DNA of 32,000 bases from a virus (IMGVR_UViG_3300037851_001030:162644-194643); one strand, 5' to 3'. Shown: positions 2,452-31,285, counted from the first letter of the stretch. Notes: generated from the sequence alone by a model not told the origin. Numbers and translations are program-made.

Positions 2452-3096
2452 TTAGTAGCCCAGGCCCTTCCCCATGCACTTCGCGAAGGGCGATGGCTGC
2501 TTCTCCGTACCCCATGGGTTCGTACACTTCGTGAGCACGTTGACGAGCGGCCACAGGTAGAGAGCGGGCGGAGTGACCAGCTTGTAGTCATCGATCACGC
2601 CCGCGCGATAGCGGCAAGGACACGTGGCGGTCACCGTAAGGCCCTTGGCCTCGCATAGCACGCTCGGTGCCGGGGCCCCCGGTAGGAACTGCCACTCGGG
2701 ATGGCACTTCGAGGTCTCGGGATCGACGACCTTGATCTGGATGCAGTTGCCAAGCTTGATCGGGCCCGTATCCCAAGCACCGCGGCCGCAGCCCCAGGCC
2801 GCCCGCTGCTCTGCCGTCGGGTTGGGAACCTCTGCCATCGCACGCTTCACGCAGGTGTCGATCGCGAAGAAGCGCTCATCGAGCCGGCGCAGGTCGATGC
2901 TCCACTTCACGAGGTCGACGTCGACCTTGATCCCCTTCGGCGTCGTCACGGTCGGCGTCACCATCGGCGGCGGATAGATCACCGACGGAAAGAGGGTGCG
3001 ATAGCACGCGGGGCAGCCCCCCACCCACGAGGTGTACTTGGTGCAGCAACCAGAGGCCAGGAGCGCAAGAATCAGAACGCATGAACGGCTACTCAT
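2452..3096 (-). CDS. Cys-rich putative lipoprotein (214 aa)
   Basis: MSSRSCVLILALLASGC has a signal-peptide n-region, hydrophobic core and lipobox-like A-S-G-C. The mature part carries about a dozen Cys. Its ATG overlaps the upstream stop (ATGA). Confidence 0.7.
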   Translation of the reverse strand: MSSRSCVLILALLASGCCTKYTSWVGGCPACYRTLFPSVIYPPPMVTPTVTTPKGIKVDVDLVKWSIDLRRLDERFFAIDTCVKRAMAEVPNPTAEQRAAWGCGRGAWDTGPIKLGNCIQIKVVDPETSKCHPEWQFLPGAPAPSVLCEAKGLTVTATCPCRYRAGVIDDYKLVTPPALYLWPLVNVLTKCTNPWGTEKQPSPFAKCMGKGLGY

Positions 3097-4121
3097 GACT
3101 TCACCTGGCTGGCCGCCTGCTGCAAGAGGTCTCGCAGGTCCTGGGGCTCGGACGTCAGCACGCGCGCCGCGTACTCGAGCACGGCTTTCGCGTTCCGGCT
3201 CCGCGTCACGTTCTTCTTGCTGTCCGGATACACGTAGGTGCCGAAGATCGGATTCAGGAACTTGCTATCGTCTGCCTGGAGCGCGCGACAGCCGGCGTCC
3301 GATAGCGGGTATTCCTTGCCGTTGATCACGAACATCATACGATAGAGGTCGTGGTACTCACCCCGCTGACCCGCGATGCGGCCACGCAGATGCAGCTCAA
3401 CCGTTAGCTTGCGGTTCTTGACCATCGGGTCGTCGGCGCTCAGCTCTCCGAGCTGGACGAGCGCGTCCTTGAACGCGATCGGCCGGCCCTTCTGCCACCT
3501 GTACTTGACCGCGGTGAACTCCGCGTTCTCCGGGAGCAGGTAGACCTTGGCGTTGTAGCCCTTGATCTTACCGAGGCTTGCCCACAGCTCGCGGATCACT
3601 TTGGGCGCCAGCGTCTTCAGCGGCTGCGACAGCGGGTACCGATGAACAGACATCGTGTAGTAGTCGACGTCGCGGCCCGTGAAGTAGTTGACCTCCCGCA
3701 CGAAGCGCACGGCCACGAACACGTGGTTCGACGGCGAGCGGCCATAGACCACATAGCCGCTGTACTGGTTGTCGCCGTATCCACCGAAGCCGGCCTCTGT
3801 CACGAAACGCCATTCGACGTCGGTGGGCACGCGCGCCTTGACCGCGGCCTGCTCAAAGGTCACGTGGTCCTTCTTGGCCTCGGCCGTGAACCAGGCCGCG
3901 ATCTGGTCGGCAGCCTCCTTCGGGTCGACCTGCTTACCCGTGAGCTTGGCTAGCAGATCGGTGGCTCGACCCTGATAGGGTCCCGGCTCGTTCGAGAGCC
4001 CGACAAGCACGTCGCCTACGTTGTCGGCGGATGGCGCCGCGAGCATATCGCGGAGGCGATACTGGAGAGAGCCCGCGTCATCAGCACGTCGCAGTTTGGA
4101 AGCGAGTCGGATGAGGTCCAT
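3093..4121 (-). CDS. hypothetical protein, NVGD-domain paralogue A, leader-bearing (342 aa)
   Basis: N-terminus MDLIRLASKLRRA (leader motif), then ADNVGDVLVGL ... ATDLLAKLTGKQVDPKEA, which is shared with ORFs 4165-5199 and 23012-23575. Confidence 0.7.
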   Translation of the reverse strand: MDLIRLASKLRRADDAGSLQYRLRDMLAAPSADNVGDVLVGLSNEPGPYQGRATDLLAKLTGKQVDPKEAADQIAAWFTAEAKKDHVTFEQAAVKARVPTDVEWRFVTEAGFGGYGDNQYSGYVVYGRSPSNHVFVAVRFVREVNYFTGRDVDYYTMSVHRYPLSQPLKTLAPKVIRELWASLGKIKGYNAKVYLLPENAEFTAVKYRWQKGRPIAFKDALVQLGELSADDPMVKNRKLTVELHLRGRIAGQRGEYHDLYRMMFVINGKEYPLSDAGCRALQADDSKFLNPIFGTYVYPDSKKNVTRSRNAKAVLEYAARVLTSEPQDLRDLLQQAASQVKS

Positions 4122-4164
4122 GTGTCGTCCTATCTAACCTTGCGTAGGCCACAGAGGTCTATGG

Positions 4165-5199
4165 TTATCTCCAGACGCTATGGTGAGACTCGTACGCGAC
4201 TTTGTTCTGGCGAAGCCACGTGCTGAACTGGCTCCAGGTCACGTTGCCCAGAGCCCCGGGCTTGGCCTTGAGCAGTTGGTATAAGCGGCGGGCGGCCGCC
4301 GGGCTCTTGGCACCGTACTCGATGTAGTACGGGTCCGGCTGGCTGAAGTCCGACGACGGACTGTAGAAGCTGAACTCGGTCCAGCCGACGGTACCAGCGA
4401 AGTCCTTGCCGGAGACCTCGATCGGATCGGTGCTGGCCGGCGTGACCTTGAGGTAGTGGACCTCGTACAGGTCGATGGGCGTCAACCAGTGGGTACCGGT
4501 GATCACGCGCTCGTACGACGAGACGTCGCCCGGGGTCTCAGCCAGTTCCTTTTCAGCCTCGTCGATCCAGAGGTCGATGGCCGCCTGGTAGTTCTTCTCC
4601 AGCGCATCGAGCGCCTGGTCGAAGCTCATGCCCGAGGTTATGGGATGAGGCCGCCGCGCTATGTTAGTGGGCAGGAAGAGGCTGGCGTTTCGCTTGTGCT
4701 CCATGTTATCCGTATAGATAGCAAGGCCCAGCTTGACCTTGTGCGGCTTGCCGGGTAGCTCCTCGAGCATGATGAAGTTGTGCTGGTCGTCCCAGCGAGC
4801 GCGGAGGCGATTGCCGAGCACCCTGACCGCAGGTAGCCGTCCGTAGGAGGGAAGTCCATAGGAACGCTCGGCCACCGAGACCTTGCGTCGCGGCAGCTTG
4901 ATGGGCCCGCCTACGGGACTGGCGACCGGCTCCTCGATCGAGGTCGTATCCTTGGCGAATAGCTTGTGGAGCCGGCCAACGACCTCGGTCGGCGTTATGG
5001 TTCCGGCCTCGAGCCGCTCGAGGAGGTCCTTGGCCTGGCTCGCGGTCTTCGGGTCCTCCTCGCCCACGACCTCGACCAGAAAGTCGCCGACGTTATCACG
5101 CGACGGGTCGTCGACGAGCTGCTTGAGCCGAAGGATGCGACGGCGCACTGGAATCGCGGCGTATCGAACGTGGTAGGCAAGATCGATCAGTGTAGGCAT
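4165..5199 (-). CDS. hypothetical protein, NVGD-domain paralogue B (344 aa)
   Basis: GGAGGG RBS upstream of ATG 5199. RDNVGDFLVEV ... AKDLLERLEAGTITPTEV aligns with paralogues A and C. The C-terminal two thirds are unrelated to them. Confidence 0.7.
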   Translation of the reverse strand: MPTLIDLAYHVRYAAIPVRRRILRLKQLVDDPSRDNVGDFLVEVVGEEDPKTASQAKDLLERLEAGTITPTEVVGRLHKLFAKDTTSIEEPVASPVGGPIKLPRRKVSVAERSYGLPSYGRLPAVRVLGNRLRARWDDQHNFIMLEELPGKPHKVKLGLAIYTDNMEHKRNASLFLPTNIARRPHPITSGMSFDQALDALEKNYQAAIDLWIDEAEKELAETPGDVSSYERVITGTHWLTPIDLYEVHYLKVTPASTDPIEVSGKDFAGTVGWTEFSFYSPSSDFSQPDPYYIEYGAKSPAAARRLYQLLKAKPGALGNVTWSQFSTWLRQNKVAYESHHSVWR

Positions 5200-5267
5200 G
5201 AGCCCTCCAAACGCTGAAAAACACTAGTCCAGGAACGCTCTTGCCAAGACCGCGGTCAGGCCTCACT

Positions 5268-30118: not shown

Positions 30119-30138
30119 TTGTGCACCTCTGCCTAAGG

Positions 30139-30468
30139 CTAGCTCAGCTTGCTCATCTTCCTAAGCAGTCGAGCCTTGGCCTTTCGCCAGTCGCTGCCAG
30201 GAGCGCACTCTTCGATCACCTTGACCACAGTGAGATCGACCCGCTTGCTGTCGACCGCGTACTCAAGCAAAAACCATTGGGCCAGCGTATACACGGGCTT
30301 CGTATAGTTTCCTGCCCAGTTCCTGCAACCACCGACACGCATGACCAAGTAACGGTCGGTTCGGTCCACGAGCCAGGGCTGACTATCTCCGTAACCCCAG
30401 TCTAGACCAAGAAAGACCACGCGGTCATCGCGGAAACGGAAATGGAACCCGTCGAGTAGGTTCTTCAT
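30139..30468 (-). CDS. hypothetical protein (109 aa)
   Basis: ATGA overlap with the upstream gene's stop. Balanced composition. Confidence 0.6.
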   Translation of the reverse strand: MKNLLDGFHFRFRDDRVVFLGLDWGYGDSQPWLVDRTDRYLVMRVGGCRNWAGNYTKPVYTLAQWFLLEYAVDSKRVDLTVVKVIEECAPGSDWRKAKARLLRKMSKLS

Positions 30469-31007
30469 CTGGCTGTCCAGTACATGGAGTGGGTGACGTC
30501 AGAAATTTCGAGCGCACCAGTGACCGGCATGAGTCCGTACTTGTGTATACAGCCTGATAGACTAGCCAGCGAGACCTCGGACCCGAAGTCGTGGACGCCA
30601 ATGAGATCCCCCGTGCGTAGATGCGGGGCAACTATCTCGAACTCAAGCTTCTTCCGAACTCCATCGACGAACACGAACGCGGGTCGTGGCAACGTGTCCA
30701 TGAAGAGGTGAACGGCGTCGGGGTCGTGGCAGTTTAGGTGCATGTATTGCACGCCAAGGGTTGTGTGGAGCACCTTCGTTCTCGCCGAGCGTCGATCGAC
30801 CACGTCCGCGGTCCAGGTTGCGAAAGGGAACCAGGTGCCAAGGTATGAGGCGACGCCGCCGAGCCAGGTTCCGATTTCGAAGGCGGCCGCTAGCGAGTAA
30901 CGCTCGAACAGCTCGCCCACGTACTGCACGTTGGCCCAGGTCTGGCCCATGCGCCCGCCTGCGCACGGCCAACCGTCGGTGTTGATGTCGTACCACGCAC
31001 AGCTCAT
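30465..31007 (-). CDS. class I methyltransferase-like protein (CmcI/Methyltransf_24-like), 180 aa
   Basis: AFEIGTWLGGVASYL (E-x-G-T-x-x-G-G motif I variant), TWTADVVD and AFVFVDGVRKKLE. ATG 31007 overlaps the upstream stop (ATGA). The track extension to 31106 is rejected. Confidence 0.5.
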   Translation of the reverse strand: MSCAWYDINTDGWPCAGGRMGQTWANVQYVGELFERYSLAAAFEIGTWLGGVASYLGTWFPFATWTADVVDRRSARTKVLHTTLGVQYMHLNCHDPDAVHLFMDTLPRPAFVFVDGVRKKLEFEIVAPHLRTGDLIGVHDFGSEVSLASLSGCIHKYGLMPVTGALEISDVTHSMYWTAR

Positions 31008-31285
31008 AGCGTTGTTCCTGACGGCAGAAACCAGGGGGAAAAGTACCCCGGGATCACACCTGCGAGTGCGAGACAGTTTCCGTCCTCCGTCAGCACGCGA
31101 TAGCACGCCATGAAGTGCTCGCGATTAGGGACCCGCTCCAGAGTCGTGGCTAGGGGAAACACCGTCTGAGCCCAGCCCAGAATCTCGGCGTAGGTAAGCT
31201 CAAACTCCATGTCTAAGGCTGGGCGAGACCAGAAGGTTCTGACGCTGAACCTGACGTTCTTCGCTAGCGCCCGCAGATTGTCCAT
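31004..31285 (-). CDS. hypothetical protein, leader-bearing (93 aa)
   Basis: ATG 31285 is preceded by GAGGGAGG and gives MDNLRALAKNVRFSVR. The track extension to 31468 is Gly/Arg-rich. Confidence 0.55.
   Translation of the reverse strand: MDNLRALAKNVRFSVRTFWSRPALDMEFELTYAEILGWAQTVFPLATTLERVPNREHFMACYRVLTEDGNCLALAGVIPGYFSPWFLPSGTTL

Follow-up and report, generated by a model that had tools for sequence, protein, structure and literature searches.

Why should one uncultivated giant phage place nearly the same short peptide at the very start of a series of proteins that otherwise appear unrelated? The question arises from a 32,000-nt stretch of the viral sequence IMGVR_UViG_3300037851_001030 (hereafter, the window). 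There, an initial annotation reported a leader of consensus M-x-L-x-x-L-[AR]-x-x-[LIV]-R-x-A on at least ten unrelated ORFs, with two more copies inside an 870-aa ORF. That observation is real, although not every listed copy belongs to it. All twelve N-termini given there translate as stated, and eight strong copies of a 10–14-residue peptide (M-[D/N]-L-x-x-L-R...) were found in the window, scoring 11.4–17.5 bits on an HMM of eleven copies. It should be noted that these copies are scored by a model that includes them; the maximum score in the reversed proteome is 4.3.

Six of the strong copies are ORF N-termini, all on the minus strand. The leader MDLIRLASKLRRAD (4080–4121; 12.5 bits) begins the 342-aa ORF at 3093–4121. 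The leader MNLFQLRGRIRQAA (18031–18072; 17.2 bits) begins the 360-aa ORF at 16990–18072, and MRLETLRGVVRQAA (20974–21015; 11.9 bits) begins the 870-aa ORF at 18403–21015. Two copies start with GTG: MNLQRLASRTRQAA (22960–23001; 17.5 bits), on the 126-aa ORF at 22621–23001, for which the metagenome gene caller chose a later start at 22923, and MNLADLRTAALGPR (23534–23575; 11.4 bits), on the 187-aa ORF at 23012–23575, whose homologue P0134 begins MDLLALRQAFRRAD. The sixth, MEIRALASRLRTAT (24391–24432; 12.8 bits), begins the 286-aa ORF at 23572–24432.

The remaining two strong copies are internal and in frame within the 870-aa ORF. The copy MDLATLRARLAGRS (20143–20184, minus strand; 11.7 bits) starts at the ATG at 20184 (aa 278), with the Shine-Dalgarno sequence GGGAGGAGG (20194–20202) 9 nt upstream, and its GC3 of 0.46 falls in the lowest 2% of windows in the ORF. 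It heads a 152-aa module (19747–20202; aa 272–423), bounded by ...AAGL and ...SAGL, that is absent from the orthologue in the closest relative, L008. The copy MDLGTMKRRLATKE (19105–19146, minus strand; 12.3 bits) starts at the ATG at 19146 (aa 624), preceded by the Shine-Dalgarno sequence AGGAGGAG (19154–19161), 8–9 nt upstream by a hexamer scan. The same Shine-Dalgarno sequence is present in L008, where this junction is conserved but an unrelated body follows. The retention of a strong Shine-Dalgarno site and an ATG at both internal copies fits fused genes or nested starts. Every copy begins at a start codon, and none occurs at a non-Met position in about 15,000 residues.

Two analyses address chance resemblance, which the initial annotation had itself named as a way for its observation to fail. 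In an unbiased all-vs-all BLOSUM62 comparison of residues 2–14 of 47 genes, 14 pairs score ≥15 (controls: mean 1.3–1.9, maximum 7 in 1000) and 8 pairs score ≥20 (maximum 3); thus, the observed similarity exceeds that of every one of 1000 controls. Moreover, an HMM built from the eight window copies alone finds, in flanking DNA of the same phage, two clear copies, at 37313+ (16.5 bits) and -409 (12.6 bits), and one marginal copy at 36801+ (8.4 bits), as well as four copies in the close relatives L008 and L162 (11.2–17.5 bits). The background maximum among 699 candidate starts is 7.4. One phage therefore has eleven copies, ten clear and one marginal, in about 47 kb.

Six of the twelve copies listed initially are not supported as copies of this motif. 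The N-terminus MDNLRALAKNVRFS of the 93-aa ORF (31244–31285, minus strand) needs a one-residue shift and, at 2.9 bits, is not above noise, while those at 18355-, 24779- and 21820- score below noise; these four are not supported. The other two are distinct leader types with independent support, each found also on other bodies in other phages. One of them, MPTLIDLAYHVRYAA (5155–5199, minus strand), on the 344-aa ORF at 4165–5199, aligns with the leader in an alignment of paralogues, and a similar N-terminus (MAPNLAHQVAVRFAAA) sits on the unrelated protein P0003. The other, MKLSELVRTAGLRTA (28807–28851, plus strand), on the 107-aa ORF at 28807–29130, has the same 15 residues on an unrelated 99-aa body in L008, and by eye resembles the N-terminus of the conserved-domain proteins of L027–L031.

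Evidence that the peptide, rather than the DNA, is conserved comes from codon usage. The initial statements that six copies share RTG-RAC-CTN and that later codons differ synonymously are both correct. Of 172 codon pairs encoding identical residues, 64 are identical, against 58.5 expected from codon usage, and the upstream regions show, by eye, only ordinary Shine-Dalgarno sequences. A nucleotide-level element overlapping the gene starts, such as an RNA motif, promoter or repeat, is therefore not indicated in the window. Analogously, in orthologues of the 360-aa carrier (62–70% identical), positions M1, L3, L6, R7, R9, φ10, R11 and A13 are kept, whereas positions 2, 4, 5, 8, 12 and 14 vary. 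The situation differs in relatives: the leader DNA itself is nearly identical between copies in L162 and in L004, a contig of a sister lineage, so part of the pattern reflects recent copying.

Leader and body are separable modules. A BLASTP all-vs-all comparison found only 4121-, 5199- and 23575- to be related beyond the leader, over about 60–115 residues (E about 1e-5). These three share an N-terminal domain of about 75–85 aa (leader, P..DNVGD.LV and helices; 3867–4121, 4930–5199 and 23351–23575, minus strand), but their C-terminal bodies differ; distant homologues of this domain also begin with a leader-like helix, at low overall identity. The third modules of L008 and of the window share only aa 1–11, the L008 99-aa protein and 28807+ share only aa 1–15, and L162 has the leader on an unrelated 202-aa body. 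Conversely, one body may carry different leaders. The 870-aa ORF includes a conserved domain of about 165 aa, here termed A1 (19216–19713, minus strand; PLYGH...DYPYGF...GFRFVSQTMNP), which elsewhere is a stand-alone jumbo-phage protein of about 185 aa with interchangeable N-terminal leaders, or none. In the sister lineage (L004 and L156), a different shared leader, MTRRTSR..., is present on 8 of 27 and 6 of 7 called genes, respectively, including its A1 protein.

The physical character of the leader is less distinctive. The initial suggestion of an amphipathic helix is weak, the mean hydrophobic moment being 0.40 against 0.34 for other N-termini; the consistent property is a net charge of +1 to +3 in 10 of 11 copies. 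AlphaFold2 models of two carriers give a helix at residues 3–10 or 3–13 followed by 17–20 residues of low-confidence coil, an architecture like that of known encapsulation and targeting peptides (PMC12339742; PMC5694885). With pLDDT of only about 33–58, however, these models leave undecided whether the leader is a terminal amphipathic helix with a flexible linker.

The initial interpretation, a common targeting or docking signal, is partly supported by these results: selection acts on the peptide, the carriers are not full-length paralogues, and the leader behaves as a separable module, which is what such a signal predicts. In our opinion, the best explanation, which we hold to be about as likely as not, is that the leader is a short, basic, lineage-specific N-terminal module (M-[D/N/E]-L-x-x-L-R-x-x-φ, often continuing R-[Q/R/T]-A), predicted to be a helix followed by a flexible linker, that the phage attaches to otherwise unrelated, fast-evolving proteins so that one phage-encoded partner can recognise them all, as a sorting or docking tag. 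The analysis demonstrates that the motif exists, sits only at start codons, is under peptide-level selection, is separable from the body, differs between lineages and, at the internal copies, keeps its own ribosome-binding site. That it binds a common partner is an inference. The favoured destination is the assembling prohead, by analogy with the T4 capsid targeting sequence (CTS), which marks internal or ejected proteins; that the partner is a head scaffold, core or portal, and that the tag is removed afterwards, is speculation, and a different phage-built structure, or tag-tag association, is not excluded. The phage is known only from metagenomes, the carriers match no known family, and the domain tested has no homologue in GenBank phages; there is no direct evidence for any partner, localisation or processing, and presence in proheads or virions, sufficiency for packaging and removal of the leader were not measured here. 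No capsid, portal, protease or scaffold gene was recognised in the ~47 kb available, so linkage to head assembly is not shown. In addition, if the observed density (about 11 of 55 listed genes) held across a 210-kb genome, the genome would hold dozens of carriers, which is many for packaged cargo.

Several other readings were weighed. The strongest, although we consider it rather unlikely on its own, is that the Shine-Dalgarno–ATG–leader unit is a portable gene-start cassette, acquired by new or shuffled ORFs through recombination because it gives reliable expression, the peptide being kept for translational or folding reasons or as a recombination joint. Thus, two adjacent genes of L162 have leaders identical at 32/33 nt with unrelated upstream DNA and unrelated bodies, leader codons in L004 are identical far more often than expected (116/160 against 49), module breakpoints fall at the leader, the internal copies keep the Shine-Dalgarno site and, in one case, the low GC3 typical of gene starts, and leader codons have lower GC3 than other gene starts (0.62 against 0.74). 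Yet in the window synonymous sites are saturated while specific residues are kept, and orthologues conserve the motif positions selectively; both need selection on the peptide, and an expression cassette would not require L3, L6, R7 and R11. The similar first helix in distant homologues of the N-domain also speaks against it, although this reading can coexist with docking. That the carriers are merely diverged full-length paralogues, a possibility raised beforehand as fatal to the initial proposal, is very improbable: apart from the three related proteins no carrier pair aligns beyond the leader, carrier lengths range from 71 to 360 aa, phages whose orthologues are 70–82% identical have the same leader on unalignable bodies, and the A1 body occurs with several leaders or with none. 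Remote structural paralogy was not examined, as only one confident model was obtained.

An N-terminal degron or timing tag, marking for example early host-takeover proteins for regulated proteolysis by a phage or host AAA+ protease, is unlikely. A terminal position, a short length, a following flexible linker and use on diverse proteins are also hallmarks of degrons of the ssrA and lambda O type, a parallel not tested here, and the strict Met1 register fits recognition of a free N-terminus. However, no protease or adaptor was recognised in the available sequence, it would be odd for the highly conserved A1 domain, probably a core gene, to carry such leaders across lineages if it were meant to be destroyed, and the very different chemistry of leader types in different lineages argues against a conserved host protease as the reader. 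Doubtful, too, is the chaperone tag proposed initially, through which a phage J-domain protein would hand clients to host Hsp70. A J-domain-like ORF with an HPD motif lies at 1919–2269, another is present in L004, and Leu-rich cores flanked by Arg resemble DnaK-binding peptides, although neither this resemblance nor co-variation was tested. Against this, the J-domain hit is below Pfam's cut-off (16.9 bits against 27.8), and A1 bears in other lineages acidic (QLDREIAEAL) or Arg/Ser-rich (MTRRTSR...) leaders with no hydrophobic core, unlike the preference of DnaK. The compartment option, also proposed initially, would be new rather than known: chimallivirus phage-nucleus import (the PicA/Imp pathway) likewise selects a subset of the proteins of a jumbo phage for a compartment, but it recognises a folded surface, and no terminal signal could be found (PMC11087766). 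No chimallin or PicA homologue was identified here, though neither was specifically searched for.

In T4, the CTS of IPI–III and Alt is a 10–20-residue N-terminal peptide, separable from its cargo and shared by diverse, fast-evolving proteins that have only the CTS in common (PMC3012670, PMC5694885). The present leader agrees in its extreme N-terminal position, in its 10–14-residue span and in being shared by otherwise unrelated proteins. By inspection, it shares no pattern with the T4 consensus (MKTYQEFIAE-like), and the cleavage motif of prohead proteases (L/I-x-E in T4; A/S/G-x-E in phiKZ-like phages) is not enriched after it: [AGSLI]-x-E occurs in residues 8–30 of 3/11 carriers against 7/38 other proteins. 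There are also many more carriers per kb, and the in-frame fused copies keep their own Shine-Dalgarno site and ATG. In the giant phages SPN3US and phiKZ, conserved N-termini on diverged head proteins, such as the identical first 15 residues of SPN3US gp53 and gp54, are thought to act in prohead targeting (PMC5694885), but those proteins are paralogues with long propeptides (often >100 aa) cleaved at A/S-x-E, whereas most carriers here are not paralogous, and no homology to those proteins was found. In phage P1, the N-terminal 30 residues or fewer of DarB suffice to send a protein into the capsid, yet no consensus is shared among the Dar proteins (PMC9024508); here, a clear consensus is shared by 11 copies. 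Encapsulation peptides of bacterial microcompartments join a short terminal helix through a disordered linker to diverse cargo, with a sequence specific to the shell type (PMC12339742, PMC4594438). Encapsulin cargo-loading peptides are of the same design. In this tailed-phage-like genome, Pfam scans of 30 window proteins detected no BMC-H/T/P shell or encapsulin domain. Finally, the leader does not have the features of a Sec or Tat signal peptide, which requires a hydrophobic h-region of at least about 10 residues after a basic n-region (and, for Tat, S/T-R-R-x-F-L-K): the longest hydrophobic run in the first 35 residues is 2–5 in 10 of 11 carriers, while 36801+ has a run of 9, possibly a membrane segment.

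The same sequence as that of the window is carried by two Logan contigs from run SRR12687606, of 37,988 and 20,551 bp, which together add about 8.5 kb to the right of the window and 6.9 kb to the left. The protein database records the 870-aa and 360-aa leader-bearing proteins on a JGI contig of 210,455 bp, so the source is a jumbo phage known only from metagenomes; the analysis covered the window and these flanks rather than that whole contig.

The observation made in the initial annotation, that a short N-terminal leader recurs on multiple ORFs of the window, holds, and every N-terminus listed there translates as written. 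A comparison that does not use the originally proposed pattern was run first, in the form of ungapped BLOSUM62 scores between residues 2-14 of all 47 genes in the 40 kb then available. Fourteen pairs score >=15, whereas random internal segments or shuffled N-termini give a mean of 1.3-1.9 and a maximum of 7 in 1000 trials; 8 pairs score >=20, against a control maximum of 3. On an HMM of the 11 copies, the copies themselves score 11.4-17.5 bits, the next best site in about 15,000 residues scores 2.9 bits, and the best hit in the reversed proteome scores 4.3 bits. It should be noted that those 11 scores are self-scores, so that the cleaner test is out of sample. An HMM trained on the eight window copies alone scored MNLQRLRRALADPL (window coordinate 37313+) at 16.5 bits, MDLTAIRSRVLAAR (coordinate -409) at 12.6 bits, MDLTALRKAITLDH (36801+) at 8.4 bits, which is marginal, and four copies in the two closest relatives, loci L008 and L162, at 11.2-17.5 bits, with a background maximum of 7.4 bits among 699 candidate starts. 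In 1.65 Mb of more distant related loci (47,936 candidate starts), only L008 scored above 13. The motif is therefore specific to this lineage and is not a general property of high-GC phage N-termini.

The original list of copies nevertheless requires correction. The ORFs starting at 31285- (2.9 bits), 18355-, 24779- and 21820- are not supported as carriers, while 5199- (MPTLIDLAYHVRYAA) and 28807+ (MKLSELVRTAGLRTA) represent different leader types with their own support. The leader of 5199- aligns with the main leader inside a paralogous N-domain and resembles the N-terminus of the unrelated protein P0003, MAPNLAHQVAVRFAAA. The first 15 residues of 28807+ recur on an unrelated 99-aa protein in L008, with 80% identity over residues 1-15 and nothing beyond, and also resemble the N-termini of the conserved-domain proteins in related loci L027-L031. 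The carriers had been described as mostly unrelated by eye; however, 4121-, 5199- and 23575- are not unrelated, as they share about 75 N-terminal residues, including a P..DNVGD.LV motif. The window therefore holds six ORFs with strong N-terminal copies and two internal copies, and the phage as sampled has eleven copies, ten clear and one marginal. One of the six, the ORF at 22621-23001 (-), is started by the metagenome gene caller at 22923 (100 aa), but the GTG at 23001 has a GAGGAG Shine-Dalgarno (SD) sequence 5 nt upstream and yields the leader, so the longer form (126 aa) is probably correct.

Selection acts on the peptide. At positions where two leaders have the same residue, the codons are identical in 64 of 172 cases, while genome codon usage predicts 58.5, and upstream sequences share only ordinary Shine-Dalgarno elements by eye; a nucleotide-level motif was rejected on the codon comparison. 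In orthologues of the 360-aa carrier, which are 62-70% identical overall, the leaders read MNLFQLRGRIRQAA, MELTALRQRVRQAA and MELVALRQRIRFAV. Thus, M1, L3, L6, R7, R9, the hydrophobic residue at position 10, R11 and A13 are kept, while positions 2, 4, 5, 8, 12 and 14 vary, a pattern that is the signature of a constrained motif.

Leader and body are separable. That the carriers might simply be full-length paralogues had been named in advance as grounds for abandoning the targeting interpretation; BLASTP finds no similarity beyond the leader for any carrier pair other than the three paralogues. The L008 orthologue of the 870-aa ORF matches window residues 138-271 (76% identity) and 424-634 (81%) but lacks residues 272-423. 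This 152-residue module (19747-20202, -) begins with GRRPQS-MDLATLRARLAG and is bounded by ...AAGL and ...SAGL, which suggests insertion or deletion by recombination between short repeats. After the shared junction ARRRPS-MDLGTMK(R/Q)R(L/I)A, the two phages continue with unrelated bodies of 247 and 101 residues. In L162 the gene upstream of the 365-aa orthologue encodes an unrelated 202-aa protein that begins MELVALRQRIRRAA, and its first 33 nt are 32/33 identical to the neighboring gene's leader, while the flanks differ.

A conserved domain of about 165 residues at residues ~435-600 of the 870-aa ORF (PLYGH...DYPYGF...GFRFVSQTMNP, here termed A1; 19216-19713, -) carries interchangeable leaders. 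It forms a family of 2,730 clusters at 90% identity and usually occurs as a ~185-aa stand-alone protein. Members (loci L008-L152, proteins P0005-P0124) are highly conserved, 45-65% identical to the window domain, and sit on metagenomic contigs from under 1 kb up to about 500 kb, with many listed members on phage contigs of 100-500 kb. The domain has no Pfam model; PDB sequence and profile searches with it found nothing, tblastn found no homologue in GenBank phages, and Foldseek of the confident predicted structure (pLDDT >95) against PDB and BFVD found no match at E<1e-3. Its N-terminal 15-50 residues vary by lineage, being M(T/S)KTPAQLDREIAEAL in most, then MNRVVIASEILKIAKELMA, MSRELVAFQDALIA... 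and MTRRTSRKRTSVRRNSSRRLRRNG, with no leader in a few.

The same phenomenon is observed in a sister lineage with a different shared leader, MTRRTSR(K/R)..RRNS. In the 13.2-kb contig L004 (JGI Ga0315284_10010449), eight of 27 called genes start MTRRTSR(K/R)... (starts 391, 1158, 1592, 2281, 3534, 4615, 5043 and 5989), as do six of seven in L156 (starts 354, 907, 1674, 1995, 3166 and 3549). The 529-aa protein P0004 of L004 contains internal copies of its own leader, whereas in L156 two of its parts, the N-terminal ~128-aa module and the leader-plus-A1 part, are separate overlapping genes that each carry the leader. Internal copies therefore arise when leader-bearing genes fuse in frame. Unlike those of the window, the L004 leaders are homogenized at the codon level, with 116/160 identical against 49 expected, so that recent copying or a nucleotide-level role cannot be excluded in that lineage. 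Eight further small genes of L004 (starts 1702, 2068, 8991, 9443, 10529, 11747, 11973 and 12308) all begin MSY(S/T/N/H), and several have Gly/Ala-rich hydrophobic stretches; this is a second class of shared N-terminus in the same contig. An HMM of the QLDREIAEAL motif of the usual A1 leader, (K/R)K(T/S)xAQLDREIAEAL, finds about 15-20 further ORFs without a recognizable A1 domain in related jumbo-phage loci (L011, L013, L018, L026, L030, L033, L036, L039, L042, L043 and L154). Several hits are at or near an N-terminus and several are internal or C-terminal in the stop-to-stop ORFs, whose true starts were not checked; basic residues often flank the motif by eye, and one L036 ORF has three or four copies. 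These ORFs suggest that short helical tags on diverse proteins may be a wider habit of this phage group. A crude per-locus clustering of N-termini across 88 related loci was too noisy in these high-GC genomes, control clusters being as common as real ones, and recovered only the window phage and L004 convincingly.

Both internal copies in the 870-aa ORF begin with ATG and lie 8-9 nt downstream of GGGAGGAGG or AGGAGGAG (20194-20202 and 19154-19161). About 19 strong SD-like sites lie inside genes in 30 kb of coding DNA; only two of them are followed by an in-frame start at 3-10 nt, and those two are exactly the internal leaders. The first internal leader has a GC3 of 0.46, within the lowest 2% of windows in that ORF, and gene starts in this genome have reduced GC3 (0.62 for carriers and 0.74 for other genes, against 0.83 for gene bodies). 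The second junction, SD included, is conserved in L008. Two readings fit these data, namely recently fused genes, or nested genes that give 870-, 593- and 247-aa products, each with a free leader, and our data do not discriminate between them.

AlphaFold2 predicts a helix at residues 3-10 in the second module, with a 123-sequence alignment that covers only the A1 part, and at residues 3-13 in the 360-aa carrier, each followed by 17-20 residues of coil. Confidence in these regions is low (pLDDT about 31-58), and the model of the 360-aa carrier as a whole was too poor (pLDDT 55.7) for a fold search. Net charge is +1 to +3 in ten of eleven copies. The amphipathic character proposed initially is not distinctive, as the helical hydrophobic moment is 0.40 against 0.34 for other N-termini. 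No carrier has a Sec/Tat-like hydrophobic region, with the possible exception of a membrane segment in 36801+, and a Sec/Tat signal was accordingly rejected, as was, by inspection and in the absence of any Pfam HTH hit, an XRE-type helix-turn-helix N-terminus.

Scans of the carriers and their neighbors with Pfam, PHROGs and NCBIfam gave no informative hits. Searches for relatives in GenBank phages, by megablast of 8 kb and by tblastn of a QLDREI leader, found nothing. IMG/VR scans with the 1154-aa and 870-aa proteins found no close relative, scans with proteins P0135 and P0138 found nothing, and the alignment of the shared N-domain was too variable to scan with. A scan of genome contigs gave 4 distant hits and no close relative, while P0129 and P0133 from the representative search are tandem-repeat artefacts and not homologues.

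The short terminal peptide under selection, the flexible linker predicted after it, the unrelated and rapidly exchanged bodies, and the specificity of the leader sequence to each lineage together form the pattern of a tag read by a common partner. Because one conserved domain carries basic, acidic or Arg/Ser-rich leaders in different lineages, the reader is more likely phage-encoded and co-evolving than a conserved host factor. The best precedent is the T4 capsid targeting sequence, a 10-20-residue N-terminal propeptide that loads "a highly diverse set" of internal proteins onto the scaffolding core and is then removed (PMC3012670, PMC5694885); related cases are SPN3US gp53/gp54 and P1 DarB (PMC5694885, PMC9024508). 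We therefore favor, at roughly even confidence, a docking or sorting tag, with prohead incorporation as the leading but only tentative sub-hypothesis. The initial interpretation of the leader as a common targeting or docking signal is thus supported in part: the analysis demonstrates that the feature is real and under selection, while its reading by a partner is inferred from the pattern, and nothing shows such a partner. Also against this reading, no head genes were recognized in the DNA examined, and the [AGSLI]-x-E cleavage motif is not enriched. A compartment-targeting role, also raised initially, would differ from what is known of phage nuclei, where no terminal signal was found (PMC11087766). 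The architecture predicted at low confidence also matches microcompartment encapsulation peptides, which are a short helix plus a disordered linker (PMC12339742), but no shell genes were found among the window proteins scanned. We found no description of a leader with this consensus; it is functionally analogous to known phage and organelle targeting peptides but belongs to none of them by sequence or by cleavage motif.

Among the alternatives, the strongest, although in our opinion an unlikely one, is a recombination-spread "start cassette", which is supported by the near-identical leaders of the adjacent L162 genes, the SD sequences of the internal copies, the codon homogenization in L004 and the reduced GC3 of leaders. 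It does not explain residue-specific conservation with randomized codons, and it can coexist with the tag model, since conserved leaders would naturally serve as recombination joints. A degron remains possible but improbable, and a chaperone tag, one of the options put forward initially, is somewhat less probable still, the DnaK/J-domain idea being weakened by the differing chemistry of leaders on the A1 domain. The J-domain-like ORF of the window (1919-2269, -) is small and has an HPD motif but lies below Pfam's cut-off; a clear DnaJ-domain protein is encoded in the sister contig L004 (8419-8982), so a J-protein may be conserved in this phage group. Full-length paralogy and chance are effectively excluded, although remote structural paralogy was not tested, as only one confident model was obtained.

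A broader reading, which is not excluded but which we consider doubtful, is that a clade of uncultivated soil and sediment jumbo phages uses lineage-specific peptide "address codes", i.e., short terminal helices (MDLxxLR... here, MTRRTSR... in a sister lineage, and (K)KTPAQLDREIAEAL in many others) that route dozens of unrelated, rapidly exchanged proteins to one phage-built structure, either the capsid interior or a so-far undescribed compartment or hub. In this view, the tags would also act as in-frame joints at which cargo modules are swapped, inserted and fused, with internal ribosome-binding sites yielding nested tagged products. If the leader is a sorting tag, it gives a sequence-only way to list the cargo set of an uncultivable giant phage, that is, proteins that are packaged, ejected or otherwise co-localized. 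It would extend the T4 logic of a conserved tag on hypervariable cargo to a very different and much larger group of phages, and could supply new short tags for loading proteins into phage particles or compartments. The modular behavior also shows how such phages build new multi-domain proteins, as the same leader sits on different bodies in near-identical phages and leader-bearing genes fuse while keeping internal start signals. Finally, the A1 domain defines a large, highly conserved and completely uncharacterized jumbo-phage protein family, most of whose listed members carry a short N-terminal leader of this kind.

The window is 62-67% G+C and looks like phage DNA. Besides the carriers and the J-domain-like ORF, it encodes an HU-like protein, a methyltransferase and a PTH2-like ORF. 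A 1154-aa protein (7649-11113, -) has no family, PDB or IMG/VR match, although by eye its C-terminus looks sheath-like, which was not tested. It is followed by a 278-aa protein (6747-7583, -) with repeated Cys-pair, zinc-ribbon-like motifs, counted by eye, and a T7-endonuclease-I-like C-terminus (28.0 bits, just below Pfam's 29.1 cut-off); a 1145-aa + 280-aa gene pair lies in the same order near P0003 on another contig. Just outside the window on both sides, three very large ORFs of 1115, >=1493 and >=1584 aa (L002 1-2921 and 4714-8061; L153 9391-12498) contain intein splicing and LAGLIDADG domains, some of them twice, in host proteins that were not identified. Two tRNA predictions (16566-16636 and 16820-16895, +) lie in the gap between the HU-like gene and the carrier cluster; one has an anticodon that ARAGORN could not assign but reaches the Rfam tRNA threshold (45 bits), while the other is a tRNA-Val(AAC) that ARAGORN calls but Rfam does not. 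The sigma-70-family protein (5241-6569, +), with regions 1.2, 2, 3 and 4, carries a ~160-residue C-terminal extension with no match, and the gene caller starts it about 9 codons downstream of the TTG.
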